DNA of 64,000 nt from Candidatus Omnitrophota bacterium (GCA_026387175.1 JAPLME010000012.1:69849-133848), one strand, 5' to 3'; counted from the first letter of the stretch, positions 14,256-64,000 are shown. Made by a program: numbers and translations. The notes: generated from the sequence alone by a model not told the origin.

Positions 14256-14261
14256 AACCAT

Positions 14262-14924: not shown

Positions 14925-14942
14925 TAGATTCTTCCTTAACTT

Positions 14943-14978: not shown

Positions 14979-14989
14979 AGAGGGAATAT

Positions 14990-35099: not shown

Positions 35100-35135
35100 A
35101 ATTTATCAGGACACAAAAAAAGGGGCGCTTCATAT

Positions 35136-36338: not shown

Positions 36339-36342
36339 TCTT

Positions 36343-36412: not shown

Positions 36413-36426
36413 AGAGAAAATAACCA

Positions 36427-39615: not shown

Positions 39616-39679
39616 AATCTGATCCACCGAGGGATTGGTCTTGACAAGCTTGACTACTTAAACTTATAATAAAAATTAT

Positions 39680-42600: not shown

Positions 42601-42838
42601 TATCTCCAGAGTCAGGCCTATACTTATGACAGCGTTTTCGACGATACTGGGGCTTGTACCTATGGCATTTTTAGGCGGCGAAGGCGCGGAACTCCGCGCA
42701 CCTATGGCCATAACGGTTATGGCCGGCCTTACAGTCGCGACATTTCGCACACTTACGGTAATTCCGGCAATCTATTTAAGTGTTACAAACATAGGAAAAA
42801 AACTTTTTAAGAGAAAAATAACAGAGCCAAGCTTATAA
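39680..42838 (+). CDS. RND efflux permease, subunit 2 (tandem paralogue, MdtBC-like arrangement)
   Basis: MSLSQFSIERPVTIIMIVSGILIFGCISLGLLPQELFPQ. 1052 aa. Confidence 0.9.
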   Translation: MSLSQFSIERPVTIIMIVSGILIFGCISLGLLPQELFPQIVYPQLTVVTPYENAAPEEIETLITKPIEEAVGTVAGVKRIRSISKEGLSLVIAEFGWSQNINFAALGMREKIDLVKERLPREAEEPIVLAYNPFDKPILLLSVTSSSESRSPVNLRRLAKKMIKDEIEKVEGVASATISGGLEREILVDINQGRLQSRQIPILDVSKAVSNANLNYPAGTIKESFYEYLIRTLGEFEKVSDVETVPVGSEEARGQQPQQQEDEPGKPSKRNVSKDKRLIYLRDIATITDDVKERTSYSRYNGKENISIAIQKQALGNTVRIIDRVKKKLEELKGDLPKDISFKVVYDQSGFIKDSINGVWDAAWQGAVLVIIVLYYFLRNAKSSLIVAFTIPISIMATFSLMFLSGVSINMMSLSGLAFGVGSLVDAAIVVIENIFSHMQSGEDPKKAAIIGANEVSTAVAGAILTTVVVFLPLIFVVGIVGQITKDFALTVTFSLMTSWVASMTIIPLLASRGLKILDKDPKTVAIVRHFYEKQTVKYVNAPGKYIFQTFIVFLLSLTLFIFMDKELMPKVDQGQFTVKIDMPAGTRLEVTNTVSEKIEKFLLTIPEVEAVSATVGSTKESSTKSIVDRLNYNQAEIVVSLKKKRKLKSSDVVQIVKSHLATMKLEGARIDYVLQENVLAAGTAVQAPVTIEIKGNDLKVLENLAREVQKALGSIKGIYGVKNNLSEPSPEIKVYIDKDKASLYGLSVTDIAQTSLIGLKGFVSSKLKDKGEEYDIRVRLRKQDRDNFDKLARIELQTPTGAKIQLSSVASFTRGKGPSEIIRMEQERVVLVYANIYDRALKDVTSDVDNILTKIHVPNNYTFKLAGESEEMKTSFDSLRNAIIAAFLLVYMIMAALFESLWQPFVVMFSIPLSLIGVAWGLFITHTSVSAYVLIGIGILGGIDVAHTVVLIDCINLYISRGMSTKEAALAASISRVRPILMTAFSTILGLVPMAFLGGEGAELRAPMAITVMAGLTVATFRTLTVIPAIYLSVTNIGKKLFKRKITEPSL

Positions 42839-49100: not shown

Positions 49101-52100
49101 CAACCCCAATGACATGACTCTCGCCATATTGAGAGCGCAAAAGGCTGAGGTGGCGGTGCCTGCCGCTGCGCCGGCTATATTATTAGAGGAAGCCAAGGCT
49201 CCGGCACCGGTTGAGCCGGCTGAATTACAGTTGCCCGCCGCAATACCGCCAGTTGTGGAGATTATCCCCGGTGAAACTGACATTCAGAAAAAAGCTCTTC
49301 AGGTGTTCGGAGAAGTTCGCGGGATACCTGCGGAGAAATTGAGTTATAGGAAGGGACAGATAGAAGCGGTCGAGGCGATGAAAGAAGGGAAATTCGCTGA
49401 ACTGCGAACAGGCGGTGGTAAGACGCTTACCGAGGGCGTGACTGCGCTCGAAGTGCTCAATGATCCTATTCGGCAAACGGTATGGCCGGGTGAAAAAGTC
49501 CTGATAATGACTCACGAAGACAATCTTACCGAACAGGCAATGGTGAAGGATAAGATGGGCGCTATATTGAGCAAGTGCGGCGCTGTGACAGGGTTTATTC
49601 TTCCGAAAGTTATGGCTAATGGAAGCGTTGCCGAGATCGGCGTAATATTCGAGAATGGGGTGGAAGTTGAGAGTGAGGCCGCTATCGACAAGGTTTTCGA
49701 GCGCTGCGATATCATATATGGTAAGTGGGACAGGTTCGTCCATCGTAATATGAAGGAGAGGCTTGGGACCGATACTCTCGAGATGAATACGAACAAGTAT
49801 TTTACACTCTTTGATGAGGCGGATCTGATGCTCGTATTTGGTTCCGCGACGCCGTGCATTATATCAGGCAAAGATATGGACGATGCTGAGAAGCGCCTTG
49901 CTGTACGCAAGGGGATAAACAGTATAGTTAAAGAGATGGTATTAAAAAATCAAAAACGCTATTTATATATTCCGCAAGGGACAAGAGAAGCATATTTGAC
50001 TGACAGCGGAGAGCAGGCAATCGAGAAGAAGATCCGGGAATTATATAAAGACAATGAATATAAAGAGCTTCTAGATATAGCGGTTAAAAACTGGAAGATC
50101 TTTGCCATGGACGCGTTACAGGCGAACCTTTTCTATAAAGTTGACGAACAGTACTTCCTTAGAACGGATGAGAAGGGAAAAGTCATTGGTGTTGATGTTT
50201 GCGACACGGACACTAAAGCCAGAAAGACCGGCATGTCTTTTGGCGAAGGTCTTCAGCAAGCCATAGAAATTTCCGCAGGTGTAGCGGACGCGAATTTAAC
50301 TCCCGAAACGTATACTTCGATGTCGATGGCTATAGGCAATTTCCTCTCGAGAGATATTATCACAGATTACGCGGGCGCCAGCGGCACAATGGAAAAAGAG
50401 CGTTTTGAGAATATGTATATGGATAAACACGGCAAAATCAAAACCGTGCTCAAGATAGAAGGTGAATCACAGACGCTGGATAAGAGTGCCGGCCACACGG
50501 GATTTAATACAAGGGAAGAGAAGTGGGCGGCCCTGATAGATAGATTGCCTGCAAAGATGTCCCTTGGACAGCCAATCCTAATAAAGATTGAATCGGATGC
50601 CGAGATGGCAGAGCTAAAGAAGTATATAGAGGCTAATATGGCTTCTATGCTGGCTGAGCGAGGAACGATAATAAATCTGGCCAGCGGCAGGAATGCTGCA
50701 GAGTTTACTGAAAATATAGCCAAAGCCGGATATGGAAATGTTATAACGATAGTTACCAATATAGCGCATCGCGGTATCGATATAGAGATAAAGGGCCGTT
50801 TCCTTAATAATGACGGAACCGAAGGCGCCAAAGTGCCGCCGATAGATAAAGATGCCCCCGGGTTGCACGTAATATCGACTTATTTGGATGAACCTGAGGC
50901 ATTCGAGATCCAAACTCAGGGCCGCGCGGATAGAGGCGCCAATAAAGGTTCGTGGGAAGGGCTATTCTCGTTAGATGAAAAAATATTTACTGAGCATGTC
51001 ACTCTATTGGACCAGCAGATAGCCGCGCTGCGTAATGCGGTGGGGAAAGGTGATAAGACCGCTATCGACGGGCTTATGGCAGCGGATGGGCGCACAGTAA
51101 GACTGGGTTTAATAGCTGAGATCAGAGACAGGATAGTGAGTGAGCAGAGCCGCAATGATGAGAAACGCCGCGAATATGAGAACGAGGTATTCGCATATCA
51201 GGAAAAGATCCTGGGTCTTCTTAATATAACAACATCGCGTGACGAATTTATAAAATTCCTTAAGGCGATAGGCGCCTATGATGGTATAGTGAATAATCTC
51301 AAAGAGGGTGAGACGATCGATGAGAAGATAGCCGTTCTGGCACAGTTGACTGTTTCCGTGCTGACCGATGAGATGAGTAAATTCCAGACGGAACAGCAGG
51401 TTATCCGGAAACGGCTTGACTATCTGGCCCGGGAAGCAAGGCTGGGATTGAGGCCCGCTCTTATACAGTTCAATAAGGAGATAGCGAACCTGGCGTTACT
51501 TGCCAGGACTTTTGACGCCAGGATAAAAGATGCCAAAGCATTCGTGTCCGCCATTATTGCCCAGGACATGGGAGATAAAGTCGAGAATGTGGCGGAGACC
51601 GGGAAACGGAGCTTGCGCGATCTTATCTCCACCAACTTTATCAAAACATTCGCATCCATAATTATGATCGTAGGAGCAGGTTTCCTGACGGCTAAATACG
51701 GCTTCTCTTCGCTGGCTGATAGCATACTGCAGCCCTTAGTCACGCTGTTGACGGCGCATCCTCTCCTAGCCGGTATTGCCGCGGCGATGATGCTCATCTC
51801 GGCTGTATATTTAAAACAGCTTTACGGTAAGAAGATAGGCGTGCTCGATACATCTAATACGGAGTTCCTGAGATTCACAGTCGGCGTAGGCAGAGGGAAC
51901 TTCTTCAAGGCTTTTGGCCGATGGACAGGCATAATGGCCTTACAGATCCTTGCAGGTCCCGGACTATTTGTTGGCGCCGGCACGCTGATAGCCGCGATAG
52001 CACATCCTATACTTGCGGTGGGATCAGTAGCGCTTCCGCTTGCGCTGGTCACAGTAACACTTGCGCTCGCGGCCAATATAACCCTTATCGCGATATTTAA

Positions 52101-55100
52101 GTCGAAACTCGAAACAGTCAGAGATATCACGCCTACGCGCTTCCAATCAGGGTTCAATACATTCGTGAGGGCGCTGGCCATTTCTATAGGCGTCGTCTTT
52201 GCATTGCAGATGGCCGGCGGTATTCTCGCCACCACTCTCATCTCGCTTGGTTTTATAGTCGTGACTGCGGTGGTTGCCGGCTTGGTGGCCAGAAGTATCG
52301 AGAATAGATCTTACAGAGCGAAACTGCCGGTATTTATAGGCGGAGCCTACGGTATTATCGCGGCAGTGGGTCTTATAGTCTTGTCCGCAATATTCGGAAC
52401 GCCCGCTGTATTCTCCTCGGCCCTTATCATGCCGCTCATATCCATTCCGGTCGCGGTTATCGGGATAGCGATGATGATATTGCAGGTGGTCCAGGCGCGC
52501 AAGGTGGCCTTGGAAGCTGAACGCGCCGGCCAGAGTTACTGGAGAACTTTAGCGGAATCGTTCGTGCCAAATTCGCGCAATATATTGATGTACGCTATGT
52601 CGCTACCGGCCGTGTTTATACTATTCAGCGGAGCTGTTCCAGCGCTGATATTTGTGGGCGCGGTAGGGTTTGGAACTCTCCTTATTAATAAATACAGCGT
52701 GAACATCGAGAAGATGACCGGCCGTAAGATGTCGGAAACTATTTCAGGAATGGCAGGACAGGCTATAATGTTATCGGCAGGCGCCGCTCCGATGGTGGCC
52801 TACCCGCAGGCCGCGTATTCTGCGCAGGTGGAGAGCTTAAAGGCCGGTCTGAAGCAGGGCGCGATGGACCGAGCTGCCATAGCCGCCGCTGAAACTATAG
52901 GCAAATATTCTCCGAAGCAGTTCTCCGGATTCGAAAGATTGAGCAATAATATTAGCAGTGTTTTTGATGATATCATGAATGGGAAAGCGGTTGTGGCGCC
53001 TGAAACACTTCAAATTACCGCACCCGCGGCTCCGCAAGTTACTGAAAAAGCTATTGAAGAGCAAGTGAAGCCGAAGGAGAAGCCTCAGGTCGGCGAAACC
53101 CCCGGTGGCGGCACTGCAGGACAGGGCCCTGCAGCAGGGCCCGGCGCGGGTGGAATTCCTCCGCCACCGCCTGTTATTCCCGAAGTGCAACCTGCTCCTG
53201 AGCAGATTTCGCCTGTGCCTACGCCTGTAAGGATGGAAAAACCGGATCTTGCGAGTGTCTTGAAGGATGCCCGGGAAAGTAACCTCGCTGTCGCGAAACT
53301 CGTATCCCCGCTCGCAAATTTTATAAATCAGGGTAATGTTATAAGCAATGTTGGTGGCCCCACCGATAACCCAAACATCCTGATAATCCGAAATATTCTT
53401 AAAGCTCTGGATTATAATCTAGACGGAGAGGCTGTCGCAGCGCTCCAGGAAAAGCATAACCTCGCGAAACAAGATGGAAAGATCGGCCGCGAAACTATGG
53501 CTGCGCTAATAGGAGAGCTATTAGCGCTGGATAACAGCGCGGATGTCGCTAAAACGATAAGCAAGAACACCGCTATGGAAATAGCGTCCCTTCGGGAAAA
53601 AGCGGCAGAGGTCGAAAAGAAGCAATTTGCCGGCGCGGCAGGGGTTAATCAAGCTGGAGCTAATCCAAAACTTCTTGATAATATGGCAGCGCTCCAAGAG
53701 GAGATATACGCTAAGTATGGCTGGCGGTTCTACAAGCTTAGCGTAGTGCGGACGAAAGAAAGAGAAGCCATGGTCGTTAAGAAACACTATAAGGATCTTA
53801 AGTATAAGGATAGCGAGAAGATAGCGGAGCTCGCCGATTATATCATTGATCCCGCAAATTCTCTGCTTCCCGCTGATGAGGCGAATCAACTTAAGGCGAG
53901 ATATCCTGATGTTGAGCGGCTTATTAACAACAGCCCGCATGTTAGAGGGATCGCCATGGATATCTATTTAATAGATGAAAATGGGATAGTTCGCGATTCA
54001 CATGTTTCCGCTAATCGTTATATGTATGATATAGTCGGCAAGCTTGCGGCGGAAAAATACGGCATGATATATGGCGGCAATTTCAAAGGCCTATTCAAAG
54101 ACGACACTATGCATTTCCAGCTTGATCCTCGTAATCTAGCAATTGAACTGGCCAAAGAGGAAGCTGCCGCGGCCAAAGAGCCAAAGAAGGTTACGAAGAA
54201 GGCAATGGAAAGAAAGCCTCGCGCCGGGCTTGACGAAGCATTCAAGAGAATAGAGAATTGGGCAGGAAAGGTGGCAGCCACCGTTAAGTCTGCAGCCGAT
54301 AAATTAACATTAACGCCTATGGGATTTCCGATCTGGGGAACTTCGGCCGCATGCAGTCCGTCGAACGGGGAATATTTAATTGCCGGAGGCCCGCTTGGCA
54401 GTATAGGTAAAGCTGACAAGTGCTATGTTTTTGGTAGAGAAGGAATTATAGCCCCTCATGCGAGTTTCCTCGCCCTTGACGTAGCGCCTGCTGAAGCGAT
54501 GTGGAATATAGACGAAATGATAAAATTATATCCTCAGGTGCTCGGTAAATACGGAATGTATGATTCCGTAAATGCGAAGAACGAACAATCCTCCAGACAG
54601 TATGTAGCGGTCAACCAGGCCATGAGTTTCATAGCTATGGTCAATTGCCTAAAAGGTGGAGTTATACAAGACCGTTTTGCCTCAAATGCAGCTATCAAAA
54701 AGTCAATCAGCTTATTGAACGAGACGTTCGACAAGATAGAGACTCCTGCCGGCCTATCACTCGATAGAAACATTTCTTCGGAAGACAGGAATAGGCTTCT
54801 GAGTATAGCTCAAAAGACCTGGGACTACTTTAAAGATAACGTTAATGAGAGCACAAACTGGCTGCCGCCAAACATGATAGATTCGCGAGGAGCCGCCGTT
54901 AAGCATACTTCCATAACCGACATAGGGCTCTACCTTACAAGCATTGTCGGAGCAAAAGAATTAGGGCTTATCGATGAGGCTGAGGCCAGGACCAGGATCA
55001 TCAACACTATAAATACTCTCAAGAAATTGGACAAGTGGAACGGGCTATACCGGAACTATTATCATACGGATGACTTGAAGTCCGTGACAAAGGGAGACAG

Positions 55101-58100
55101 GCACATCTCTACCGTTGACAATGGATGGCTCGCCGCAGGCCTTATAATTGCCGGTGAGACATTCCCTGGATTACAGGCAGAGACGGCAAACATCGTCATG
55201 AACATGAAGTTCGATAAGTTGTATGATGCTAAAGAGCAAAAGTTCGCCAATGGATATGACGAAGATACAGGGCTGACAAAGTCGCACTATGGACTTATCT
55301 ATACCGAGATACGCCCGGCGTTACTGATAGCGATAGCAAAAGGCGATATACCTAAAGAAGCCTGGCTGAAGACATCTAAGACATTACCCGAAGCGTGGGA
55401 TTGGCAGGCCCAGAAACCGAAAGAAGGCTATTACGAACACCGGGTTAAGACGGGCGTAGGAGTTGAGACGGCCCATTTCATCCCTTCATGGAACGGCACT
55501 ATGTTCGAGGGTCTGATGCCGAACATGATTTTAAATAATAGAACGCTTTCACCGAACGGCTACGCGAAACAGGACGCGATGTATGTATTCCTGCAGAAGT
55601 ATTTCGCTACGGGATTCCGCGAGGTAGCGCCGCCGGTTACTGAAACGCCAACACCAGTTACCCAGCCACAGGTGGCACCAGCGCCAGCTGCTCCGGAAAA
55701 GGGAGAGATACCGCAGTTCGCGGATCTTGCGAATGCTTTAAAATATGCCCGGGAAAATAATCCTGCCGTCGCAATCCTTATATCGAGACCATCTAACTTC
55801 ATAAATCAGGGTAATGTTATAAAGAGGACCAAGAGCCCTGGTATTGATCCAAACACTAAAGTGATTCAGGGCGCTTTGATCTCGCTCGGCTATGATCTAC
55901 CGAAGTATAAAGATGACGGAATATACTGGACGGAGACGGAAGCCGCGGTTAGAAAATTCCAGGAAGATCACAGACTAGCAAAGCGTGATGGAAAAGTCGG
56001 CCGCGAGACGATGACTTCCTTAATAAGAGAGCTGCTATTACGCGAGAGTAAGGCAAGACCTACTCCAATTGAGACGGCCGTTACTCCGGTTGCTCCATCT
56101 GCTAAGCCGATCGTTATCGCAGCTCCCAAGCCTGCTGTTACCGCGGTCCCTTCACCCGCCAAGCCGGCCGTGACCGTTCCGCAGGCTAAGCCAACTGTTA
56201 CTGCAGTTCCCCGGCCCGCTGAACCGGCTGTGGCTATCGCACCGGCTAAGCCAGCTGTCTCCGTGGTTCCTTCATCCGCCAAGCCGGCCGTTACCGCGGC
56301 GCCTAAGCTCGCTAAACCGCAAGTCAGCCCGGCTCCGGAAACCGCTGTAGCCGCAACTCCGGCGGAGTTAAAAGCCGCGCGGCAAGCACTCTTCAGAAAG
56401 AAGGGAGAGTATGGCGCTGAACTATCGAAAGCAACCAGAAAGCTTGACGAACTAAAAGAGGTTAAGGTAAGAGCCTCTGCGCAGATTAGCGGTAATCTTA
56501 AAGAGCTTGACAGGGAAACAATTCCTGCCGGGGCATTGGTCCCGACCGGTCCGCAGCGTAGGGTATCGTTCAGGGATGCTTCTGAAAATAGCACTGCATC
56601 AGCTGATGCCGAGATGAAGAGGCTCAGGATAACAAGGCAGGAACTTCTCGCGAAGCGCACATCGCGGTTATATTGGCCGGAAGTCATCGGTTTTGCGGGC
56701 ATTGGTTTCCCGGGGGCCGCATTTGTAGGAGTGACTGTAAGTCATTGGCTGAAATACCCTGGACGAGAGACTATAGTAGAGAGCGCCGAAATGAAAACTG
56801 AGCGGGCGAAGCAGGAAGAAGCCTTGTTCAAGAGGCAGCTTCTCTTCGGATTGACCAGGGCGTTCGGCCTTTGCCAGATAGCGGAAAAGGAGCTTGACGC
56901 CGCCCAGGTCTCATATAAAACAAGCTTAGAAGCGCTAAAGACGGCGCTTGCGCAGTTTGAAAAAGGGGAACTTACGAAGGGCGAGCTGGAGAATTTAAAA
57001 GCGAAACAGAACGAAGCGAACGTCAGGTATCTGAAAGCGCAGCAGGCATCGAGAAACGCGAGAGAGCTGGTAAAGTCATTAGCAGGCTATGACGTTAGAG
57101 AAGGAGTGGAGATAGATACTTCAGTTTCGCCGGATAAAGAATTTGCCAGGGAACTGGAAAAATTGGAAGACAGGAACAGGCAACCCCGTATATTACTTAA
57201 AGTCTTGGGTATTAAGGACCAGACATTGAATACCCTTTTCGCTATGGAGCAGCGTAATACAGCAGTAAAGTTAAATGCCCGCGCGACGCTCAATTTAGGC
57301 GCTGTAACGAGCGCCAATTTCGGAGTCGGATTTGAGATCACTCTCGGTAAAGATGTAGATCTCCAGCTCCGCCAATTAGAGGAGAGGCTGGCGGAAGGCA
57401 AATATATTCAGGAATTGAGAAACATGTACTTGGAAAGTGCCGAACTGATGCATGGTTTGAAACTGTATAACGACACATTAGCGCGGCTCGTAAAGATAGC
57501 TAAGAACGCGAGAGAAAAGGCGGAAGAAGATAAAGTAAAAGCTAAAAATAATATTATTTCACAGGATGATTATCTAAAGAAAGAATTGGAAGCGATAAGA
57601 GCCGAGGTGCTGGTAAAACAATTCAAGGCTTTGATAAAAAATGTTCGCAGCATGCTGGCGGAACTGGGCATCGAATCAAATGACATACCCCGCAATCTCT
57701 CGGAGGAGAATATGCTCGTCGCCGCTAAAGAGTTGATGCGGCGCAGAGCCAACGAATCGATATTATATCTAAAGGCATTAAAGACTCCCGAGAGCACACT
57801 TCGGAAGATAGACGAAAACGTCAATAACCTTTTAGCGGATAGATCGTTCTATCGCGAGGCCACGAACAGATGGGTAGTAGAGGAAGCGGAGATCTTCGAA
57901 AAGATACAGAAGAGAATAGTTTCGGAAGAGATTATGAAGAACAAGTCTTTAAAAGAACGCGTTCAGACATTGAGCGCCGGCTATACATATACAAGAGAAC
58001 AAGCTGTTGCGCAGCAGACTCTTTCCACAGGACAGGCGCCTATCGGAGGAGGAGGCGGCGCGCCGATAATTCAGCCGTGGCCGTCAACAGCCGTTTCTTC

Positions 58101-61100
58101 TACAGGAGCCGCTCCTTCTGCAGGAAGCAACCCTTCCACAGGAGCCGCTCCTTCGGAGCCGAGCGCTGCCACTACGTCCGGCACGCTTTCAATGGGCGCC
58201 GTTATACGAGTAGCCGATCCCGCATTCAAAGCGAGAATTGCTTACAGAGGCAGCCTCCAAGAAATGTTCAATGCGTATGTAAGGGCGGCAAAGAGCGATC
58301 AGATGATAGAGGCTGAGAGGGCTCAGATCGATGAAGAATTGCTAAAATTCGAACTGCGGGAAGCCAAGAAAAGGCTGGATCTGGCGGTAAGATTAAGAGA
58401 GCTTCGCGATCGCCAGGATAAGGATCAGAAAGTAAGGATAGATGCCGCCGGAAAAGATTTCGACGTTCATAATAACGAACTTCAGGCGAAGAACGATGTT
58501 GCCGATCTTGAACGAAGGCTCAAAGAAATACAATTTAAATATTCCGTGAGAAAGAGTTCGCTTAAATACGGCGTGGATCTTACCGCGGAAGTCGATAAGC
58601 TCATAAAGACATTGGAGTCGATAGATCGGGTGGTCGATATAGCCGATAAGGGAGAGCCATATGATCTTTCTATAACTGGAGAAAATAATATAAAGAATAA
58701 GAGCTGGTGGATAGGCTTGCAGTTGCCTTTCCCCATATGGTTTACAAGCAGGTGGGCCGCTAAAAAGATCAATGTCAAACAAGTGAAAAAAGACCAGCAG
58801 TTGGAGCAGGAGAAAGCAGCGAGTGTAATAATAGGGTGGATAAATGATGATCTGAAAACCGATAATGATCTTACAACCGCCAAGGCGAATGTTAAAGGGG
58901 CGGAGGAGATGATAGCGAAGATCACCAAAGAATTAGACAGGTTAAAAGGAAAAGGCTCGCGAGAAGATATCGTTCTTCGTATAGAGATGGACCTTGCCAG
59001 ATCCAGGATGGCGCTGGAAAATGCAAAAGGAGTTTTAAAGAAAGCAGGGCTCGTAAAAGAACGATCGAAGAAGATCCTTACGGCACTGGACAACTCTCTC
59101 AGAAGAACAGACGATGTTTTGATGGAGTCGCCTTCTGTGACTAAGCTAAAAGATTTTGCGAGAGAGGCATTGAGCCAAAAACGCAGAGGCGACAAGATCT
59201 CGATCACATGGGAAAAGTTTAAAGAGCTGGCGGAAAAGAATGCTGTCCCGGTCAAAATCGCTACCACCGAAAAAGAGAAGAGCGAACTGGAGCTGACGAA
59301 GAAAAAATTGACGGCCCGTCTACCGTACCTCTTCCTTGGAGCCCCTTATGCGCCGGGCGCCGGAAACGACACTTTCCGCTATGGCCTTACGGCTTATACC
59401 GACCCTTCAAGATGGTTTGAGCTCACCAACCCCGCCATTAAAGAGGCCAGGCTCGAAGATATGATAAAACAATTGGATAGCGAAAAGGAAAAGCTTAACA
59501 CGAGATTAGATATAGACGGCGCATACGGAGCCTACAGAGTCGCGCTTGTGAAAGCGGAATCCCTGAAATCTATACTTAAGAAGATGAGAGAGCAAAGATC
59601 GCGCATGGAAGCGCATACCAGGATATATCCAGAATCCGGCGGCGAAGCAGTCAATAGATATGATGTCCTTATCGCGGATACGGAAAAGACGCTGAGAGAT
59701 ACGACGGCTCAGATCAATGATCTCAAGATAAAGATGATGAATATGCTGCAGAGCGTAGGCGATATAGATTTTAAGGATGAGTCCGGCAGATCCGTAGGAT
59801 TGGAGAAGGTAGATTTTGATGCTATCTGGCCCAAAATAGAGGCCGGCCACCCCGATATAAAAGCGCTCAAACTTAGAATAGATAAAGAAGAAGTCTCCGC
59901 AAGGGCCGTATTGCGCGACAATTGGTGGACGGAGCTTTCAATTTCGCTCGTAAACAGCGAAAAATTAACGCCAGGGCTGAATTTAGTTTTAAATGTCAGG
60001 TTGAACCCGAGCTATTGGGAAAATAACGCGGAAAAGATCAGGGTAAAGGAAGTAAAGGAAGAGCTTAGAAAGAACCTTTTTGAATTAAGGCGTAAGATAG
60101 ATGACTCTATATCGAGACGCGCCAATCTTATTGCATCGATAAAGTTGGCAGAAGGTGTTTACAAAGAGAGAGCGCGTATGGTGGTGGAGGAAAGAAAGAA
60201 CTACCTCAACACCACTATTCCCACGGACAAATTACGCGAGAGAGAATACGATCTTCTGGAGGCCCAGAAGGAATACTTTGCGCAGCTTGCGGAACTCCGT
60301 ACAATAGACGCGCAGTTAAAAGATATTGTGGAAAAAGTAGGCGGCAGGATAGAAGAGACCGGCGTGGAAGAGGTTAGGAAAGATATAGTGCGTACTGAGG
60401 AACTCAGCAATGATTTTGCGGATCTCGGCGCGCAGATAGCTATGGCGGAACAGGCCAGACGAGTGGCTTCAAGGGGGATCAAATGGGTCGATAAAGCTTT
60501 AAATAGATTATCGAAAGGCATTACGCCGGAAGACGATCTGGCCGCAGCTCTCGTAAAGACGATGGAGAAGAGTGCTTCGATCGAAGTCAACGCAGCCAAT
60601 TTAAAAGAAGCCGGATATATATCCAGGGAGAAAATGGCCGAGATAGCCGTGCTTATGGGAATGCCGAAGACCCGGGCCCAGGAGCTTGAACGCGTTCAGG
60701 ATCTTCTCAGAGTAGTCTTTGATAGATATAGAAAAGCGCATAACATGACAAAAGATGAAATGTCGGCATATATAGGCAACTTCATATATTTCGCCCGGAC
60801 CATCCTGCCCAAAGTCAAGACAATCGAAACGTTACCCGAATTTGTCGGCACCCAATTCGCGTTCGTGGATAGAGATGAAACCTTAAGTTACAAAAAGCTC
60901 GGGCTGGTAAGCTACTACGCAAGGCGGGCGACCCTTCTTCTGTCGCCGGGATACAGTTGCGAAGGGAAAGGCCAGGGCGCGGCCAGAGATACGCTAGTGA
61001 AGAAAGAGGCCCCTGAAGATATCAAATTCTTAAATATGTATGACAGGATGGCCAAAGGCGGGACCTTAACCGCCGCCGATTACGAGCAATATATAAAATG

Positions 61101-64000
61101 GCACGATGAATTTGTAGCGAAGTTTGACGAGTCCGAATGGGCCAAGTTCACTTTGGACGAGATAACCGTGATGTCGAACCGCGCGAAGGAGTTCGCGACG
61201 CTTCTCCAGAAAAAGGGCCTTTACCTCTTCGGCGACATGAAAGACAAGGGTATCCTAAGCCTCATAGCGAGCCTTATTAAAGTAAACGGCTGGGAAGGAA
61301 AGATGCCGTCGGTGGTCGATACGGTCGCCGCTGTATCGCCAGCTGTGAACAAGTTCTACGGCGAAGTGACGGCCAAAGAGATAGCGAGTACACCAGAAGG
61401 CGCCAAGCTGAAGATGCTTTCCGGGTTAGTGAGCACGGAATCCGACAAAGAGAAGCTGGAATTTTATAAGAATGAATACAGTAAAACCCTTAAAGAGGCA
61501 AAAGAATCGCTAGCGCTCGGCAGGGCCATCTCGTGGGCACGTTTTGTGCTGGACAGGAACCTCGCCCCCGAAGATATGGATATGATGTTCCGCAGATTAT
61601 CCAATCTATCCGCTATAGATAAATACCTGATCGGGACAAAATCCGAGAAAGAGGGGCAGAAGATCGCCATAGTGATAGATCTGGTTACAAATCATAGGGT
61701 CTACAAAGATTTCTTCAATAAAGATGGCACTGTCAAAGATGAGGCGAAGGTTAAGAAGCTGTTTAGTATCTTCGGCAATCTTTCGGCTCTTGACCCTACG
61801 CTAAAAGCTTACGGGTATGCGGCACCTTCCGAGAGAAACGGAATGAAGATAGCGATCGCAAGGGATATCGCCCTTCAGACCGATGCCGATGCATGGAGCG
61901 CGTTTTTTGACTTAGAGGGCCGTATTATAAATCCCGGCAATGTGGATAAGCTGGTTAAATCCTTTACCAATATCTTTGTCCTCGATAGCCTGGGTTATCT
62001 CAAAAACGCAGGCTACGCGAAAAAATCCGATAAAGAAGGTGTGAGAATGGCCATAGCCAGAGACCTGGTCCTGAGGCCAAACGCTTGGAAGAGCTTCTTC
62101 GATCCTGACGGCAATATAGTCGATCAAGAGAAGGTCAAAACTTTATTCAATGTGATACTACCTAACATTGCCAAAGGCCTCGTTTCCGAAAAGATCGAGG
62201 TGCCCGGCACTGAATATGAAAAGACCGGATATATCATGGCCATAGCCAGAGACCTTGTAGAATATCCGCAGAAATGGTCGGGTTTCTTTGACGCAAAAGG
62301 CAACATAATAAAAGAAAATAATTATGTCAAAACCCTGTTCGAGGTTATTCTAAAGAATAAAGATATTCTAGAGAGTTACATGCTTCATATAGACGATAGA
62401 AAAAAAGGATCGACAGGATTTTATACAAAATCCTCTCGGCTTGAGAGAAGCGGTATGCTTACTCCGATGGCGAGAGACCTTACTACTACAGGCATAGATT
62501 CGAAAGAAAAACTGATAGAAGAGCTGGATTACAGAAAAGAGATTTTCAAGGCAGCGAATTCAAACGACGTAAAGTTATTTGATGAGCACCTTCCTTATCT
62601 TTCCGTATACACCAGGAAAGTATTTAAAGAATACGGAGACATATATAAAGACAAGACAGGAAAAGAGCTTACTCTGGACATACTGTTTAAGAATATCGCT
62701 TATGCTCGAGATACGGTCTATCCGATGGCAGGAAAAGATCTCTTAGAAGATTTGAAGGGTAAGCGCGAAAGTTGGGAGACAGATAGCGAAAGAAAGGCAC
62801 TGCTTAAACACATTGAGATGCTTAGGAATGAAGAGATAAATTTTGAATCGGCGGTTTATCTTGGCACAAAATATATGGTCTTAAAAGGCTATACGATAGA
62901 AGACGATAAGAGTAAGGAAACATATTTCCAGGAAGTCAAAAACAGGTTATATTTCCAGGCCGTGTATATGGCCAATAATGAAAATGAAAGATTGCAGCAA
63001 GGCGAGATAGGCCAGCTGCTTACTTTCCGTGCAACGGATAACTATAGCAGAATAGACATGGGTAAATTCATAAAATATGCGTCTGTATTCATCAGGAAAG
63101 AAAAAGAACTGTTAAATTCATTAGTTAAAAAGTTCGGGGAAGAGGCAATGGGAGCGTATCAATTTGCCACTAGAGGCCAGCGGTCCGGATTTATTACCTA
63201 TATGCATCGCAAAGGCTGGGACCAGAAAAAGATGGACGAGATATTTAAAGATATCGAATTCATCCAGATGGAAGAATACACTGCCACAAGTAATAAAAAG
63301 TTTATCGGATGGGAGAATATATTCCCTGTTCTTTATCAGTTGCGCGGTGATGGTGATAAGCCGCTCGATATGTGGGAGCAAAAACGCGCGCACCTCAGGT
63401 TCCAAAGCACTTTTAAACAGGATTACGCATTTATGTACGCAGGGCCTTATGAACCGCTCGCTCAGCTTATGAGAAAATGGAAGGGTGACTTTGGTGAGTT
63501 GCCATCCGCGGCTGAAAGATCGGATACTTTAAAAGTCATGGGTCTCTTGCCCGAAAAATTGCGTGATGATAATACGGAATTGCCCGAGACAAGGCTCCGT
63601 CAGGCTAAGTTAGGCGAATTCACCGAAGAGCTTGGCAGTATATATAAATCATTCGCTGTTCTCATGGCAGGACCTGTTTATGAAAAGGATATGAATGCAG
63701 ATATCCTGGCCGGACTAGAGGAACCTTGGAAAGATATGAGAGAATTTGTTGGCGATAAACTCATGAGATTTATCACCGACAAAACAGACCGATACTACAG
63801 GATAGAAGATAATCATGAAAGGCTGAACTTAAAGGAAGAGACATTAAGGCACTATCGGTATGAACTAAAGGATGAAAAGAAGAATAGGGAGAAAGGGAAT
63901 ACCGACATTCTATTGGATCCGGCCAGAAGAGCGGAAGCCATTGCCAGGCTGCAGAGGAAAGCCGAGGAGAAGACACCAGAGAAAGAAAGTTATAAGATAA
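43189..64000 (+). CDS. giant multidomain protein, 3'-truncated by window end (at least 6,937 codons in-window)
   Basis: ATG 43189 is 9 nt after AGAGGG. Reading triplets in that phase gives sensible protein with no stop through 64000; phase was rechecked at 43189, 48031, 49321, 57841 and 63931. The ORF track shows no stop-terminated + ORF in this phase anywhere in 20.8 kb, and only short out-of-phase or antisense ORFs. Confidence 0.85.
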   Translation, partial: MDIRNDEKTIDSAREELGSKSLIMDLQSPRHKIWMRAIAVILVVTFINQDIIWAQDGAPVWSKGQNGSFSFKPPVNVNSPINVPKDVAVTKEVYTAPGDKTIINIQDAHSSLGAQESIASVLDSLVTNYDLKLIAIEGSSGYIDTSILRAFSNENVRKGTASYLVKEGRMSAGEFFTVTSNKPVALYGIEDKPLYQENLEQFRAVYQANSEIRKDIENLLSSLKTLQDKIYSQELKDLTTNSVLHKDGKLTFTERWSLVKALADRTGSDYKRYENLTKLVESLKLEKDISFEKANKERDSLIDALSKKASKQDLEQIVLKSLSYKTGKISHGEYYVFLQEQAEKAGIDAEPYKNLISYTNYITLYESIDLTAIFEEVRDFEDQIKEKLFTGEDQKKLYEITKCMEYLRDIFDLKLTNGDFEYLAKNIEHCNAGFVASFIRDASIKYGVTIDTDYDLGKIFGALPQAMDFYRTAEKRNHTILANTIATMKERNQNVAALITGGYHSQGITELLRQNRTSYIVILPKFDASKGERPYVAILTNKSAPYEKLLKSGQYFIATSAYLAGISKLNEDVNNLPAGKDSKELINSSEFKELRARLADSLIASLLQSVTGAAGVDAAVLAFKKRQQVNLLGAGREMKAAVEQYLRDYTMLLEREGAGFRDANVKPLSPEVLQELVREVILDYAGFDISAEEPTEAKGLATEKVIPLVEERIKGLTKRIEVLEDQDKQAKIDKIIDIVKSAANLESSDWKEKVATAVATELRRKGLGTEEQDNITNRIITDLEQQAVAAAKPVVVAVPAAQTPAVPMVLSQAPTAVEPAALPAPTMLDQGGKDLAGKLAEAIGKQLDIIEENMNGIPWGEKNLSADTMKKLQQMKEAGLGITKIIDQTAKNIDLSPHQRALIDTISRGGEIKFYDLKNGIAPLVSYLDMIIKDENAHELLTKILERCKQTVSYLKRASFENEPMAVLTIRISGEELNFVQLRDWKKEPPETPEEWKGKLAQDGLNAREIDAKLKELADKTVIAPTPPIKPTPTVSESAAQRVILDFSSKNAKLAFDALIETLKTETVDTEKAIIDSMIPKNSTPDQPTTVLHLAGAEQRGFNDFLRNEVEVKRNAKLIGLDLNYSLADEEKKLFIGDITGDNSRKIADGSVNTIISVNFFNAECYKLYEKARETPLSETDYYINIAAEIYRMLRNGGKLYIAGSSVTSEFEKAFKAESFKMMPLDDTMPGFYEIIKIAKAGPETPGGPSERVGSVAGETPVAPPAVQAAQRILVEVCGKAGYPFVNILLTFILTLFILVSSSVYSIAAPARTVPGGPQIKLAQAVKMPTAVRTKAPVKAQPAPVQAVKPPSLVAEKQFALDQKKLRDAIDTYFAKMASSQYFMYRAPRLNSESKMIENPLLIDAFVNNRGKLALKDFRGVPGLENMPETRIDNINRIIDEIWRSVDKTALPEYIKGKLVLDRKTGRLSPVEELQKTLFALSVLAPDTYEYLKNDNAPIVLVDTDWFSGATKGDTFFGMIARNPRGVKIELSSRNNTVKRVGTAVHEAIHRKRGDVATGYFSLYLKTLGRIRELFVSLPSFEKEPIKKQQDFYKKELLINVSAEVLNNAYLSQRWWLGLIGVMAWVLTIITPAVLIAKLIVSLVSSKKEGAGRRPGPTTFMLAFILPLIATGLAGLPVIGQQVNNFAGMLFSPIPLPEIAPGEKVAAKKKAGSDVQTIVDRTIGKFYAGINAPPVVLDNNLFDRFCAFDPEDGTIHISPRAYDPKTGRVIEEVRLFHLPHEAFHYALQMTPINKNEKAHEIAATYLALLNIITNRSSLTKLINAANPVDGREVSAGMKGIVKYFESFGFDVKNINNYRALLSALNVDGLRGIASYLASTNPDFRNISDRDMASAVRLISSKPQDGIFKPLKKLDALGINKKGYLANPYLYADKLVRFEDAGVKLSAKNLSLLSLGRDNIKPYVEIALASGINPNDMTLAILRAQKAEVAVPAAAPAILLEEAKAPAPVEPAELQLPAAIPPVVEIIPGETDIQKKALQVFGEVRGIPAEKLSYRKGQIEAVEAMKEGKFAELRTGGGKTLTEGVTALEVLNDPIRQTVWPGEKVLIMTHEDNLTEQAMVKDKMGAILSKCGAVTGFILPKVMANGSVAEIGVIFENGVEVESEAAIDKVFERCDIIYGKWDRFVHRNMKERLGTDTLEMNTNKYFTLFDEADLMLVFGSATPCIISGKDMDDAEKRLAVRKGINSIVKEMVLKNQKRYLYIPQGTREAYLTDSGEQAIEKKIRELYKDNEYKELLDIAVKNWKIFAMDALQANLFYKVDEQYFLRTDEKGKVIGVDVCDTDTKARKTGMSFGEGLQQAIEISAGVADANLTPETYTSMSMAIGNFLSRDIITDYAGASGTMEKERFENMYMDKHGKIKTVLKIEGESQTLDKSAGHTGFNTREEKWAALIDRLPAKMSLGQPILIKIESDAEMAELKKYIEANMASMLAERGTIINLASGRNAAEFTENIAKAGYGNVITIVTNIAHRGIDIEIKGRFLNNDGTEGAKVPPIDKDAPGLHVISTYLDEPEAFEIQTQGRADRGANKGSWEGLFSLDEKIFTEHVTLLDQQIAALRNAVGKGDKTAIDGLMAADGRTVRLGLIAEIRDRIVSEQSRNDEKRREYENEVFAYQEKILGLLNITTSRDEFIKFLKAIGAYDGIVNNLKEGETIDEKIAVLAQLTVSVLTDEMSKFQTEQQVIRKRLDYLAREARLGLRPALIQFNKEIANLALLARTFDARIKDAKAFVSAIIAQDMGDKVENVAETGKRSLRDLISTNFIKTFASIIMIVGAGFLTAKYGFSSLADSILQPLVTLLTAHPLLAGIAAAMMLISAVYLKQLYGKKIGVLDTSNTEFLRFTVGVGRGNFFKAFGRWTGIMALQILAGPGLFVGAGTLIAAIAHPILAVGSVALPLALVTVTLALAANITLIAIFKSKLETVRDITPTRFQSGFNTFVRALAISIGVVFALQMAGGILATTLISLGFIVVTAVVAGLVARSIENRSYRAKLPVFIGGAYGIIAAVGLIVLSAIFGTPAVFSSALIMPLISIPVAVIGIAMMILQVVQARKVALEAERAGQSYWRTLAESFVPNSRNILMYAMSLPAVFILFSGAVPALIFVGAVGFGTLLINKYSVNIEKMTGRKMSETISGMAGQAIMLSAGAAPMVAYPQAAYSAQVESLKAGLKQGAMDRAAIAAAETIGKYSPKQFSGFERLSNNISSVFDDIMNGKAVVAPETLQITAPAAPQVTEKAIEEQVKPKEKPQVGETPGGGTAGQGPAAGPGAGGIPPPPPVIPEVQPAPEQISPVPTPVRMEKPDLASVLKDARESNLAVAKLVSPLANFINQGNVISNVGGPTDNPNILIIRNILKALDYNLDGEAVAALQEKHNLAKQDGKIGRETMAALIGELLALDNSADVAKTISKNTAMEIASLREKAAEVEKKQFAGAAGVNQAGANPKLLDNMAALQEEIYAKYGWRFYKLSVVRTKEREAMVVKKHYKDLKYKDSEKIAELADYIIDPANSLLPADEANQLKARYPDVERLINNSPHVRGIAMDIYLIDENGIVRDSHVSANRYMYDIVGKLAAEKYGMIYGGNFKGLFKDDTMHFQLDPRNLAIELAKEEAAAAKEPKKVTKKAMERKPRAGLDEAFKRIENWAGKVAATVKSAADKLTLTPMGFPIWGTSAACSPSNGEYLIAGGPLGSIGKADKCYVFGREGIIAPHASFLALDVAPAEAMWNIDEMIKLYPQVLGKYGMYDSVNAKNEQSSRQYVAVNQAMSFIAMVNCLKGGVIQDRFASNAAIKKSISLLNETFDKIETPAGLSLDRNISSEDRNRLLSIAQKTWDYFKDNVNESTNWLPPNMIDSRGAAVKHTSITDIGLYLTSIVGAKELGLIDEAEARTRIINTINTLKKLDKWNGLYRNYYHTDDLKSVTKGDRHISTVDNGWLAAGLIIAGETFPGLQAETANIVMNMKFDKLYDAKEQKFANGYDEDTGLTKSHYGLIYTEIRPALLIAIAKGDIPKEAWLKTSKTLPEAWDWQAQKPKEGYYEHRVKTGVGVETAHFIPSWNGTMFEGLMPNMILNNRTLSPNGYAKQDAMYVFLQKYFATGFREVAPPVTETPTPVTQPQVAPAPAAPEKGEIPQFADLANALKYARENNPAVAILISRPSNFINQGNVIKRTKSPGIDPNTKVIQGALISLGYDLPKYKDDGIYWTETEAAVRKFQEDHRLAKRDGKVGRETMTSLIRELLLRESKARPTPIETAVTPVAPSAKPIVIAAPKPAVTAVPSPAKPAVTVPQAKPTVTAVPRPAEPAVAIAPAKPAVSVVPSSAKPAVTAAPKLAKPQVSPAPETAVAATPAELKAARQALFRKKGEYGAELSKATRKLDELKEVKVRASAQISGNLKELDRETIPAGALVPTGPQRRVSFRDASENSTASADAEMKRLRITRQELLAKRTSRLYWPEVIGFAGIGFPGAAFVGVTVSHWLKYPGRETIVESAEMKTERAKQEEALFKRQLLFGLTRAFGLCQIAEKELDAAQVSYKTSLEALKTALAQFEKGELTKGELENLKAKQNEANVRYLKAQQASRNARELVKSLAGYDVREGVEIDTSVSPDKEFARELEKLEDRNRQPRILLKVLGIKDQTLNTLFAMEQRNTAVKLNARATLNLGAVTSANFGVGFEITLGKDVDLQLRQLEERLAEGKYIQELRNMYLESAELMHGLKLYNDTLARLVKIAKNAREKAEEDKVKAKNNIISQDDYLKKELEAIRAEVLVKQFKALIKNVRSMLAELGIESNDIPRNLSEENMLVAAKELMRRRANESILYLKALKTPESTLRKIDENVNNLLADRSFYREATNRWVVEEAEIFEKIQKRIVSEEIMKNKSLKERVQTLSAGYTYTREQAVAQQTLSTGQAPIGGGGGAPIIQPWPSTAVSSTGAAPSAGSNPSTGAAPSEPSAATTSGTLSMGAVIRVADPAFKARIAYRGSLQEMFNAYVRAAKSDQMIEAERAQIDEELLKFELREAKKRLDLAVRLRELRDRQDKDQKVRIDAAGKDFDVHNNELQAKNDVADLERRLKEIQFKYSVRKSSLKYGVDLTAEVDKLIKTLESIDRVVDIADKGEPYDLSITGENNIKNKSWWIGLQLPFPIWFTSRWAAKKINVKQVKKDQQLEQEKAASVIIGWINDDLKTDNDLTTAKANVKGAEEMIAKITKELDRLKGKGSREDIVLRIEMDLARSRMALENAKGVLKKAGLVKERSKKILTALDNSLRRTDDVLMESPSVTKLKDFAREALSQKRRGDKISITWEKFKELAEKNAVPVKIATTEKEKSELELTKKKLTARLPYLFLGAPYAPGAGNDTFRYGLTAYTDPSRWFELTNPAIKEARLEDMIKQLDSEKEKLNTRLDIDGAYGAYRVALVKAESLKSILKKMREQRSRMEAHTRIYPESGGEAVNRYDVLIADTEKTLRDTTAQINDLKIKMMNMLQSVGDIDFKDESGRSVGLEKVDFDAIWPKIEAGHPDIKALKLRIDKEEVSARAVLRDNWWTELSISLVNSEKLTPGLNLVLNVRLNPSYWENNAEKIRVKEVKEELRKNLFELRRKIDDSISRRANLIASIKLAEGVYKERARMVVEERKNYLNTTIPTDKLREREYDLLEAQKEYFAQLAELRTIDAQLKDIVEKVGGRIEETGVEEVRKDIVRTEELSNDFADLGAQIAMAEQARRVASRGIKWVDKALNRLSKGITPEDDLAAALVKTMEKSASIEVNAANLKEAGYISREKMAEIAVLMGMPKTRAQELERVQDLLRVVFDRYRKAHNMTKDEMSAYIGNFIYFARTILPKVKTIETLPEFVGTQFAFVDRDETLSYKKLGLVSYYARRATLLLSPGYSCEGKGQGAARDTLVKKEAPEDIKFLNMYDRMAKGGTLTAADYEQYIKWHDEFVAKFDESEWAKFTLDEITVMSNRAKEFATLLQKKGLYLFGDMKDKGILSLIASLIKVNGWEGKMPSVVDTVAAVSPAVNKFYGEVTAKEIASTPEGAKLKMLSGLVSTESDKEKLEFYKNEYSKTLKEAKESLALGRAISWARFVLDRNLAPEDMDMMFRRLSNLSAIDKYLIGTKSEKEGQKIAIVIDLVTNHRVYKDFFNKDGTVKDEAKVKKLFSIFGNLSALDPTLKAYGYAAPSERNGMKIAIARDIALQTDADAWSAFFDLEGRIINPGNVDKLVKSFTNIFVLDSLGYLKNAGYAKKSDKEGVRMAIARDLVLRPNAWKSFFDPDGNIVDQEKVKTLFNVILPNIAKGLVSEKIEVPGTEYEKTGYIMAIARDLVEYPQKWSGFFDAKGNIIKENNYVKTLFEVILKNKDILESYMLHIDDRKKGSTGFYTKSSRLERSGMLTPMARDLTTTGIDSKEKLIEELDYRKEIFKAANSNDVKLFDEHLPYLSVYTRKVFKEYGDIYKDKTGKELTLDILFKNIAYARDTVYPMAGKDLLEDLKGKRESWETDSERKALLKHIEMLRNEEINFESAVYLGTKYMVLKGYTIEDDKSKETYFQEVKNRLYFQAVYMANNENERLQQGEIGQLLTFRATDNYSRIDMGKFIKYASVFIRKEKELLNSLVKKFGEEAMGAYQFATRGQRSGFITYMHRKGWDQKKMDEIFKDIEFIQMEEYTATSNKKFIGWENIFPVLYQLRGDGDKPLDMWEQKRAHLRFQSTFKQDYAFMYAGPYEPLAQLMRKWKGDFGELPSAAERSDTLKVMGLLPEKLRDDNTELPETRLRQAKLGEFTEELGSIYKSFAVLMAGPVYEKDMNADILAGLEEPWKDMREFVGDKLMRFITDKTDRYYRIEDNHERLNLKEETLRHYRYELKDEKKNREKGNTDILLDPARRAEAIARLQRKAEEKTPEKESYKI
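46450..46810 (+). other. giant protein sub-region: class-I SAM-methyltransferase-like fold (degenerate)
   Basis: VLHLAGAEQRG...KLIGLDLN....LFIGDITGDNSRKIADGSVNTIISVNFF......INIAAEIYRMLRNGGKLYIAG follows the motif I / post-I / II / III spacing of Methyltransf_11-type domains. Confidence 0.4.
49290..50990 (+). other. giant protein sub-region: SecA-homologous ATPase motor (NBD1-PPXD-NBD2)
   Basis: Motifs in SecA order: AELRTGGGKTLT; IIYGKWDRFVHRNM; LFDEADLMLVFGSATPCIISG; MSFGEGLQQAIEISAGV; YAGASGTM; TNIAHRGIDI; QTQGRADRGANKGSWEGLFSLDE. Confidence 0.8.
51630..52810 (+). other. giant protein sub-region: polytopic membrane domain (~8-10 TM helices)
   Basis: Consecutive 20-25-aa hydrophobic stretches (FASIIMIVGAGFLTA..., IMALQILAGPGLFVGAGTLIAAIA..., ALAISIGVVFALQMAGGILATTLISLGFIVVTAVVAGLVA..., and others). 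Confidence 0.65.
53230..53520 (+). other. giant protein sub-region: PG_binding_1-like domain, copy 1
   Basis: NFINQGNVI...ILIIRNILKALDYNLDGEAVAALQEKHNLAKQDGKIGRETMAALIGEL. Confidence 0.55.
53650..54130 (+). other. giant protein sub-region: M15-family zinc D,D/L,D-peptidase-like domain
   Basis: SPHVRGIAMDIYL fits the SxHxxGxAxD zinc motif. DDTMHFQLD fits the C-terminal His of VanY/M15_4-type peptidases. Confidence 0.55.
54290..55610 (+). other. giant protein sub-region: alpha/alpha-barrel glycoside-hydrolase-like domain (GH144/putative-glucoamylase-like)
   Basis: STNWLPPNMIDSRGAAVKHTSITDIGLYLTSIVGAKELGLI...NGWLAAGLIIAGETF...W resembles DUF3131/glucoamylase-like patterns. Recalled from memory, weaker than the other calls. 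Confidence 0.4.
55720..56040 (+). other. giant protein sub-region: PG_binding_1-like domain, copy 2
   Basis: NFINQGNVI...VIQGALISLGYDLPKYKDDGIYWTETEAAVRKFQEDHRLAKRDGKVGRETMTSLIREL. Confidence 0.65.
56050..56340 (+). repeat. in-frame tandem ~33-nt repeats encoding (P/S)AKPAVTAVP units
   Basis: AKPIVIAAPKPAVTAVPSPAKPAVTVPQAKPTVTAVPRPAEPAVAIAPAKPAVSVVPSSAKPAVTAAPKLAKPQV. Confidence 0.7.
56800..60400 (+). other. giant protein sub-region: several TolC/OEP-like repeats
   Basis: ATLNLGAVTSANFGVGFEITLGKD, KNKSWWIGLQLPFPIWF, DNWWTELSISLVNSEKLTPGLNLVLNVRL, each followed by helical QL..LE..L..G.IS..D.L-type segments characteristic of the OEP family (PF02321). Confidence 0.55.
61650..62480 (+). repeat. 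four in-frame ~58-aa tandem repeats ([GN]xKIAIARD[IL]..x..W..FFDxxGNI.......VKxLF.)
   Basis: QKIAIVIDLV...FFNKDGTV; MKIAIARDIALQTDADAWSAFFDLEGRII; VRMAIARDLVLRPNAWKSFFDPDGNIV; YIMAIARDLVEYPQKWSGFFDAKGNII. Confidence 0.65.

Follow-up and report, generated by a model that had tools for sequence, protein, structure and literature searches.

A circularly permuted barrel of the beta-1,2-glucanase clan and peptidoglycan-binding modules in a SecA-bearing giant protein of an Omnitrophota bacterium

The giant open reading frame and its cassette

We analyzed a stretch of 64,000 nucleotides (nt) from a Candidatus Omnitrophota bacterium (GCA_026387175.1, JAPLME010000012.1:69849-133848), hereafter referred to as the window, and focused on a cassette of envelope-related domains embedded in a giant protein that is encoded there. 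All nucleotide positions refer to the window unless a contig is named, and all features described in the window lie on its + strand. The giant open reading frame (ORF) was identified by an open-frame scan in frame 1, which is open from 43165 to 63999 and beyond the window end. Its likely start is the ATG at 43189, giving a feature at 43189–63999 that continues past the 3′ end of the window. On Logan contig L007 the product of the giant ORF is still truncated where the contig stops after 9,262 residues, so that its full length is at least 9,262 amino acids (aa). The last 60 nt of the window had no exact match in the GTDB representative genomes. A marine Omnitrophota metagenome-assembled genome (MAG; L001) contains an orthologous ORF, which encodes at least 6,852 aa and whose conserved blocks are 66–74% identical to the giant protein (BLASTP). 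Proteins encoded next to the giant gene have identical counterparts among the NCBI entries of a Ca. Omnitrophota MAG. Because of this conservation, we consider the giant gene to be real and under selection.

The giant protein contains a SecA-like motor region (49351–50802; SecA_DEAD, SecA_PP_bind and P-loop_SecA with Pfam E-values of 9e-13, 7e-6 and 1e-10, respectively), which is presumed to be cytoplasmic. Downstream lies a cluster of ~9 hydrophobic helices (51622–52665), which are the last membrane segments before the cassette according to a Kyte-Doolittle scan (window 19, threshold 1.6). The same scan detected no transmembrane (TM) or hydrophobic segment inside the cassette. Two TolC-like OEP repeats follow downstream of the cassette (56614–57079 and 58687–59029; PF02321, 43.8 and 29 bits, cut-off 22), separated from each other by ~540 residues within the giant protein. 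With its SecA_DEAD and preprotein-binding domains, its many TM helices and its one very long ORF, the protein belongs to the SecA-bearing giant proteins of the Omnitrophota.

An earlier note on this DNA had described the segment 53230–56040, which corresponds to residues 3356–4291 of the giant ORF, as a peptidoglycan (PG)-targeting cassette composed of two PG-binding modules, an M15 zinc peptidase and a glycoside-hydrolase-like barrel. All strings quoted in that note, including TSITDIGLYLTSIV and NGWLAAGLIIAG as well as a Gly/Pro-rich linker read from the translation at 53092–53229, were located in one open frame and at the coordinates that it had given. The Pfam check that it had proposed returned PG_binding_1 twice, Peptidase_M15_4, and Glycoamylase/DUF3131, all above their gathering scores and well beyond chance. 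Two elements of the original description were not supported. The first is the view of the whole cassette as PG-targeting: the barrel is a member of the beta-1,2-glucanase clan, in which the enzymes characterised so far degrade or modify beta-1,2-glucans rather than murein. Secondly, the four modules do not form one fixed cassette, as PG-binding module 1 and the M15 domain belong to a lineage-specific insertion with no counterpart in the L001 ortholog.

A circularly permuted (alpha/alpha)6 barrel

The proposal that the cassette contains an (alpha/alpha)6 barrel of the GH144/DUF3131 kind was borne out by matches to PF10091 (Glycoamylase; 55–60 bits, profile positions 105–220) and PF11329 (DUF3131; 45–50 bits, profile positions 2–143). 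This barrel of ~440 aa resembles solved structures of clan GH-S (SGL clan), which have the (alpha/alpha)6 fold. Its best solved relative, by both sequence and fold, is GH189 (8wy1); further relatives recovered by sequence were Agrobacterium Cgs (E 4e-34) and EeSGL1 (8xuj; E 6e-12), and GH144 endo-beta-1,2-glucanases matched with E ~4e-5. Between 53050 and 56220, Pfam gave no match to murein glycosidase families (muramidase, lytic transglycosylase) at E-values up to 0.1–1, and NCBIfam gave none either. The barrel as a muramidase was thus rejected for lack of family support.

The barrel is circularly permuted, a detail that the earlier note had overlooked: the match to the C-terminal half of PF10091 comes before that to the N-terminal part of PF11329. 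Block 1 of the barrel (54310–54726) corresponds to the C-terminal third of a canonical SGL-clan domain (aligned to 8wy1 468-571). It contains the motifs WGxS, TPHASFLAL, YGxYDSV and xNQAM, and aligns to the C-terminal parts of all 120 canonical homologues compared. A connector located between the aligned blocks (54727–54789), with low confidence in the model, leads from the former C-terminus to the former N-terminus. Block 2 (54790–55629) represents the canonical N-terminal two-thirds and holds D3985, E4048 and F4114. When a 486-aa query was aligned, its residues 193–461 matched positions 4–417 of the 8wy1 chain and residues 85–182 matched positions 468–571, and the same reversed block order was seen against Cgs-like proteins. 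The canonical helix order from alpha1 to alpha12 was not found, with the C-terminal third preceding the N-terminal two-thirds. The break point is situated exactly between a helix ending with ‘...QKYFATGF’ and a ‘PIWGTS’ loop, which are contiguous in 8wy1 as ‘...QKNYAKELGIPWGISES’. The alignment used for the barrel model comprised 16 trimmed C-fragments and 8 N-fragments of homologues; the barrel has an internal pseudo-repeat, to which MAFFT wrongly aligned the C-terminal fragments in another alignment.

The 120 closest homologues in a word-index search were all canonical. They are stand-alone DUF3131/glucoamylase proteins of 440–800 aa, and many are from Omnitrophota. Such stand-alone DUF3131/‘glucoamylase family’ proteins (P0006–P0125, from Omnitrophota and other bacteria, many of them from Omnitrophota MAGs) are 30–42% identical to the barrel and share its motifs, but differ in their canonical order, in their length and in that they often possess a signal and an additional domain at the N-terminus. 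When 1.84 billion representatives were searched exhaustively with HMMER, 3,793 homologues were recovered, of which only ~10 match the whole query in one stretch. These permuted representatives (P0001/P0002, P0126–P0128 and P0130–P0133) scored 357–728 bits, compared with at most 279 bits for canonical homologues. All members of the permuted clade, which show 41–72% identity, are parts of large proteins, whose lengths reach 4,967 aa, and five of them (P0127, P0128, P0131–P0133) start with Sec-type signal peptides. A permuted barrel was also found outside the Omnitrophota, in an ORF (8378–15283) of an uncultured Planctomycetia MAG (L002; 41% identity, query residues 18–459). The encoded protein of at least 2,302 aa has no PG-binding or M15 neighbours according to BLAST. 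An assembly or frameshift artefact as the source of the block order was rejected, because this order is conserved at 41–72% identity in ~10 independent clusters as well as in L001 and L002. Four long Cgs-like representatives (P0204, P0212, P0226 and P0250) also appeared contiguous in BLAST; on inspection, P0204 and P0212 proved to be canonical, with a weak upstream extension of the alignment.

Several homologues point to a route by which the permutation may have arisen. P0129 (891 aa) carries a canonical DUF3131/SGL-clan domain twice in tandem, and its alignment with the query is one unbroken stretch extending from the end of the first copy into the second. In P0198 and P0240 the duplication is partial (block 1, block 2, block 1), and neither retains the catalytic motifs. 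These three proteins may be intermediates on the way to the permuted form, or side products of it. As they show the pattern expected for duplication followed by truncation, the permutation may have arisen in this way. Circular permutation is not mentioned in the SGL-clan paper, and our literature search yielded only one precedent for a naturally permuted glycosidase barrel, the GH70 glucansucrases, which are permuted relative to GH13. However, GH70 enzymes have a different fold, the (beta/alpha)8 barrel, and belong to another clan with another substrate.

Catalytic residues and predicted substrate of the barrel

The families of clan GH-S (GH144, GH162, GH189, GH192-194) have in common the (alpha/alpha)6 fold, an acid Glu (CpSGL E211), a Phe (F268), a Tyr (Y330) and an acidic base candidate (CpSGL E142) (PMC12102758, PMC10834661); the Phe is located near the nucleophilic water. 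Additional hallmarks of GH189 are the nucleophile Glu E1442, the His pair H1536/H1537, and an insertion between helices 4 and 5 with a long alpha5. The barrel differs from the clan members in its permuted order and in being embedded in a giant protein beside PG-binding modules, but the general clan hallmarks are kept. The acid Glu is E4048 (nt 55306, in IYTEIR), which aligns with TiCGS E1356. The base-candidate Asp D3985 (nt 55117, in STVDNGW), the Phe F4114 (nt 55504, in TMFEG) and the Tyr Y3737 are likewise present, these three being assigned by motif, spacing and invariance and not by structural superposition. Within the permuted clade, the Glu and the Asp are conserved in 10/10 members, and the Phe and the Tyr in 9/10 each.

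In contrast, the features specific to GH189 are missing. The position of the GH189 nucleophile (TiCGS E1442, equivalent to E439 in 8wy1) is occupied by Ala in our sequence (‘PWGISESG’ versus ‘PIWGTSAAC’), and this position is never acidic across the permuted clade. The His pair H1536/H1537 is replaced by Val and Asn (AHHQGM versus AVNQAM), and the GH189 insertion is absent, since only query residues 327–330 span positions 138–306 of the 8wy1 chain. As the acid Glu and the candidate base Asp are retained while the nucleophile, His pair and insertion of GH189 are not, the barrel has the appearance of a beta-1,2-glucanase-clan hydrolase that acts with inversion rather than of a GH189 transglycosylase. 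The lack of the insertion and of the nucleophile fits the hydrolase families of clan GH-S. Judging only from the reported proximity of GH189 and Group 2, the barrel is probably close to the GH193-like (SkSGL) group. Its predicted substrate is most likely a beta-1,2-glucan-like periplasmic or envelope glucan and not murein.

The M15 peptidase domain

The Peptidase_M15_4 domain (53662–54150) was recognized by Pfam, PHROG and motif analysis. PF13539 matched at 53929–54123 with 33.1–34.2 bits (cut-off 25; E 4e-8 to 9e-8; profile positions 6–70 of 70). The motif SPHVRGIAMD, which had led to the earlier suggestion of an M15/LAS-type zinc peptidase, provides the putative zinc ligands H3592 (nt 53938) and D3599 (nt 53959). 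The third putative ligand is H3650 (nt 54112), and the putative catalytic residue D3647 (nt 54103) from DDTMHFQLD is the acidic residue three positions before it. All four metal and catalytic positions are therefore intact (H-x6-D...D-x-x-H). Two endolysin families of PHROG also matched the domain, namely phrog_465 (E 1e-5) and phrog_2649 (E 4e-4). No close homologues were found by the word-index search, phmmer against the PDB gave nothing relevant, and NCBIfam gave no match. A tblastn search against 50,697 phage records returned only a hypothetical protein at E 0.07. Since neither the pairwise searches nor a structural model gave direct support, the assignment rests on the Pfam and PHROG profiles and on the motif, which support a putative LAS-type zinc peptidase.

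Duplicated peptidoglycan-binding modules and a lineage-specific insertion

The two PG-binding modules flank the M15 domain and the barrel, and each is introduced by the motif NFINQGNVI, which occurs exactly twice, at nt 53317 and 55795, as had been noticed before. Module 2 (55720–56052; lead-in 55795–55821) contains a full-length PG_binding_1 domain (PF01471 at 55849–56022, 48.4 bits, E 1e-12, profile positions 3–57 of 57). It also matched C-terminal domains of PHROG endolysins (E 2e-10) and is conserved in the L001 ortholog (64%). Module 1 (53230–53559; lead-in 53317–53343) is a shortened copy, in which PF01471 matched at 53428–53508 and covered profile positions 32–57 only. The view that both are PG_binding_1-type modules thus held in so far as both exceed the cut-off, but the first copy is borderline by its hidden Markov model score (23.4 bits versus 23). 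For the cassette as a whole, the E-value of PF01471 was 2e-17. The modules are 50% identical over 111 aa, with an 11-residue deletion in module 1, and their DNA is 75% identical in blocks of 102 and 76 nt. Because of this similarity at both levels, the two modules appear to have arisen by intragenic duplication. Downstream of module 2, a Pro/Ala/Val/Thr-rich linker (56115–56296) contains a 62-nt unit that is repeated with a spacing of 120 nt and 82% identity, and that encodes a peptide of the type ...AAPKPAVTAVPSPAKPAVT....

Comparison with the L001 ORF by BLASTP delimited the insertion at 53065–54252 (giant aa 3301–3696). Residues 2009–3301 of the giant protein match L001 residues 1734–3031, and residues 3696–4334 match L001 residues 3059–3686, leaving 395 aa between the matched blocks in our protein versus 28 aa in the ortholog. 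The segment contains the Gly/Pro-rich linker, PG-binding module 1, the M15 domain and a Lys/Ala/Glu-rich linker. It may represent an insertion in our protein or a deletion in the ortholog. The conserved core consists of the permuted barrel and PG-binding module 2.

Proposed role of the cassette

We propose, with a probability of roughly 0.55, that the cassette is an extracytoplasmic, envelope-related part of the SecA-bearing giant membrane protein, and that it serves in the producer's own periplasm to anchor the protein to the cell wall and to open this wall locally. Both PG-binding domains and TolC-like repeats do their work outside the cytoplasm. A location of the cassette in the periplasm of the producer is suggested by its position after the TM cluster and before the TolC-like repeats, by its lack of a hydrophobic segment, and by the signal peptides of relatives of the barrel. 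Under this proposal, the duplicated PG-binding modules would tether the giant chain to the sacculus, while the zinc peptidase (PF13539) would cut peptide stems and thereby open the mesh of the wall locally. The permuted (alpha/alpha)6 glycosidase would hydrolyse a beta-1,2-glucan-like polymer with inversion and would not cleave murein. Flexible linkers rich in Pro, Gly and Lys join the domains of the cassette. The cassette could thus fix the giant protein to the wall and make way for it there, in a manner similar to that of TagX for the T6SS (type VI secretion system).

TagX is the best functional analogue of the M15 domain. This T6SS-associated L,D-endopeptidase of Acinetobacter (pfam13539) is anchored in the inner membrane and cuts L-Ala-D-Glu, which lets the T6SS cross the producer's own wall; the His-x6-Asp/Asp-x-x-His arrangement has been described for both TagX and Ply500 (PMC5061870). 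The LAS peptidases TagX and Ply500/CwlK have the Pfam family, the metal-binding positions and the Asp-x-x-His positions in common with our domain. The likeness to TagX extends to the tether of membrane helices and to the proposed opening of the own wall for a large envelope-spanning structure. In contrast to these enzymes, the M15 domain is one module of a giant polypeptide and is flanked by PG_binding_1, and it shows no detectable pairwise similarity to known family members.

Several observations weigh against our proposal. Published work on giant proteins of the Omnitrophota favours the digestion of prey cell walls. The number of TM helices preceding the cassette (~9) was obtained by a crude hydropathy scan, and neither the count nor its parity is reliable. 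The M15 domain appears very divergent, with no close homologues detectable, and its single-sequence AlphaFold2 model was poor (pLDDT 51.7, pTM 0.37). A Foldseek search with this model gave LdcB (4oxd; E 0.03, TM-score 0.34) as the top hit and also the L-Ala-D-Glu peptidase of phage RB49 (E 0.55), both non-significant. Moreover, the M15 domain cannot be required for assembly of the giant protein, because the L001 ortholog has neither this domain nor PG-binding module 1.

The main alternative, which we regard as possible but less likely, is that the cassette is a weapon directed at prey or hosts and is exposed or delivered at the contact site. The PG-binding modules would then dock on the prey wall, where the M15 domain would cut the stems, and the glucanase would remove the osmoregulated or cyclic beta-1,2-glucans in the periplasm of Gram-negative prey. 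Such a function is in line with the combination of M15 and PG_binding_1, which resembles phage endolysins (phrog_2649, phrog_465), and the gain or loss of the M15 domain between orthologs is the turnover expected of an offensive accessory module. In addition, beta-1,2-glucans are described as typical periplasmic glucans of other Gram-negative bacteria. However, the cassette is located in the middle of the chain, preceded by inner-membrane helices and followed by TolC-like repeats, and not at a free end. No recognisable adhesion or delivery domains adjoin it, and no cleavage or release signal was seen. TolC-type termini face the periplasm, which would keep the segment preceding the repeats inside the producer's envelope. 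The position of the cassette thus appears to favour remodelling of the own wall over breaching that of prey.

An improbable alternative is that the cassette only binds, in which case the M15 domain and the barrel would be pseudoenzymes, acting in a structural giant protein as spacers or as anchors to the wall or to glycans. The divergence of the M15 domain, the truncation of the first PG-binding copy, and the loss of catalytic motifs in the partly duplicated relatives P0198 and P0240 are consistent with this scenario. It conflicts with the four intact metal and catalytic positions of the M15 domain and with the invariance of the acid Glu and the candidate Asp of the barrel throughout a clade whose members are 41–72% identical, which points to selection for catalysis. 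That the barrel is a GH189-type retaining transglycosylase for the cyclisation or remodelling of beta-1,2-glucan, comparable to the one in cyclic glucan synthase, is very unlikely: although GH189 is the best solved match in sequence and fold, its nucleophile, the His pair that tunes this nucleophile and the insertion between helices 4 and 5 are missing, and Pfam detected no adjacent GT84 or phosphorylase domains.

A more far-reaching and rather doubtful reading is that the giant protein is a single-polypeptide trans-envelope machine, whose domain order follows the layers of the envelope, and that the permuted barrel founds a new glycoside hydrolase family. The order would then lead from a cytoplasmic SecA-like motor via inner-membrane helices and a periplasmic wall cassette to a TolC-like outer-membrane element. 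Tandem duplication followed by truncation would have given rise to the new family, a specialisation of giant and surface proteins, in which the barrel would clear periplasmic beta-1,2-glucan around the structure.

Comparison with known giant proteins of the Omnitrophota

The protein studied here closely resembles the giant proteins reported from the same phylum (West-Roberts et al. 2023, 10.1101/2023.11.21.568195; 2026 preprint, 10.64898/2026.06.07.730766). Features in common are SecA DEAD and preprotein-binding domains that lack the canonical C-terminal parts of SecA, the many TM helices, the great length (at least 9,262 aa in our protein), and embedded carbohydrate- and wall-active domains. 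SecA-bearing giant Omnitrophota proteins with wall-active domains have thus already been published. However, the main texts of these two papers do not mention PF13539/M15, PF01471 or PF10091/PF11329 in giant proteins and discuss SLT lytic transglycosylase, TPR, dockerin and glycosyltransferase domains instead. Neither main text speaks of an outer-membrane-channel (TolC/OEP) element inside a giant polypeptide. The domain order from membrane helices via a wall cassette to TolC-like repeats is not described in the two papers. In the papers that could be searched, we found no description of the wall cassette, of its place between the helices and the TolC-like repeats, or of a permuted SGL-clan domain.

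Almost nothing is known about the arrangement and function of giant Omnitrophota proteins in the cell envelope. The cassette consists of three small, expressible domains with predictable point mutants and offers a handle for distinguishing remodelling of the own wall from attack on prey. With beta-1,2-glucan in place of murein as the expected substrate of the barrel, a phylum of predatory or host-dependent bacteria becomes connected with a glucan about which little is known. Furthermore, the beta-1,2-glucanase clan gains a natural circular permutant together with intermediate-like tandem duplicates, which should be useful for CAZy classification and for studies of barrel rearrangement.

Further features of the giant gene and its surroundings

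The best-conserved part of the giant protein is its N-terminal region of ~800 residues (aa 9–825; nt 43189–45640), which shares 74% identity with the L001 ortholog and 29% with residues 5–539 of P0130. In this region, a signal-anchor helix is present together with the motif ‘I(N/H)IQDAH’, and Pfam gave no match. Farther downstream, residues 6139–6401 (~61580–62370 in the window) are 23–29% identical to a unit that is repeated many times in P0126. As this 4,967-aa fragment also has the permuted barrel, the repeat module, located downstream in our protein, is common to both.

Directly upstream of the giant gene, ending ~350 nt before its start, lies a complete RND efflux set (33096–42838). It consists of a TolC-like OEP protein (33096–35099), an HlyD-type adaptor (35136–36338) and two AcrB-type pumps (36427–39615 and 39680–42838), and the same genes occur in identical order on Logan contig L007. 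Other genes upstream encode an OmpA-family protein with a C-terminal LysM domain (21725–22696) and an 867-aa protein with TPR repeats nearly throughout (28276–30879). A ParA/MinD-type ATPase (26928–27761) and a ROK-family protein (31492–32616) are also encoded upstream of the efflux set.

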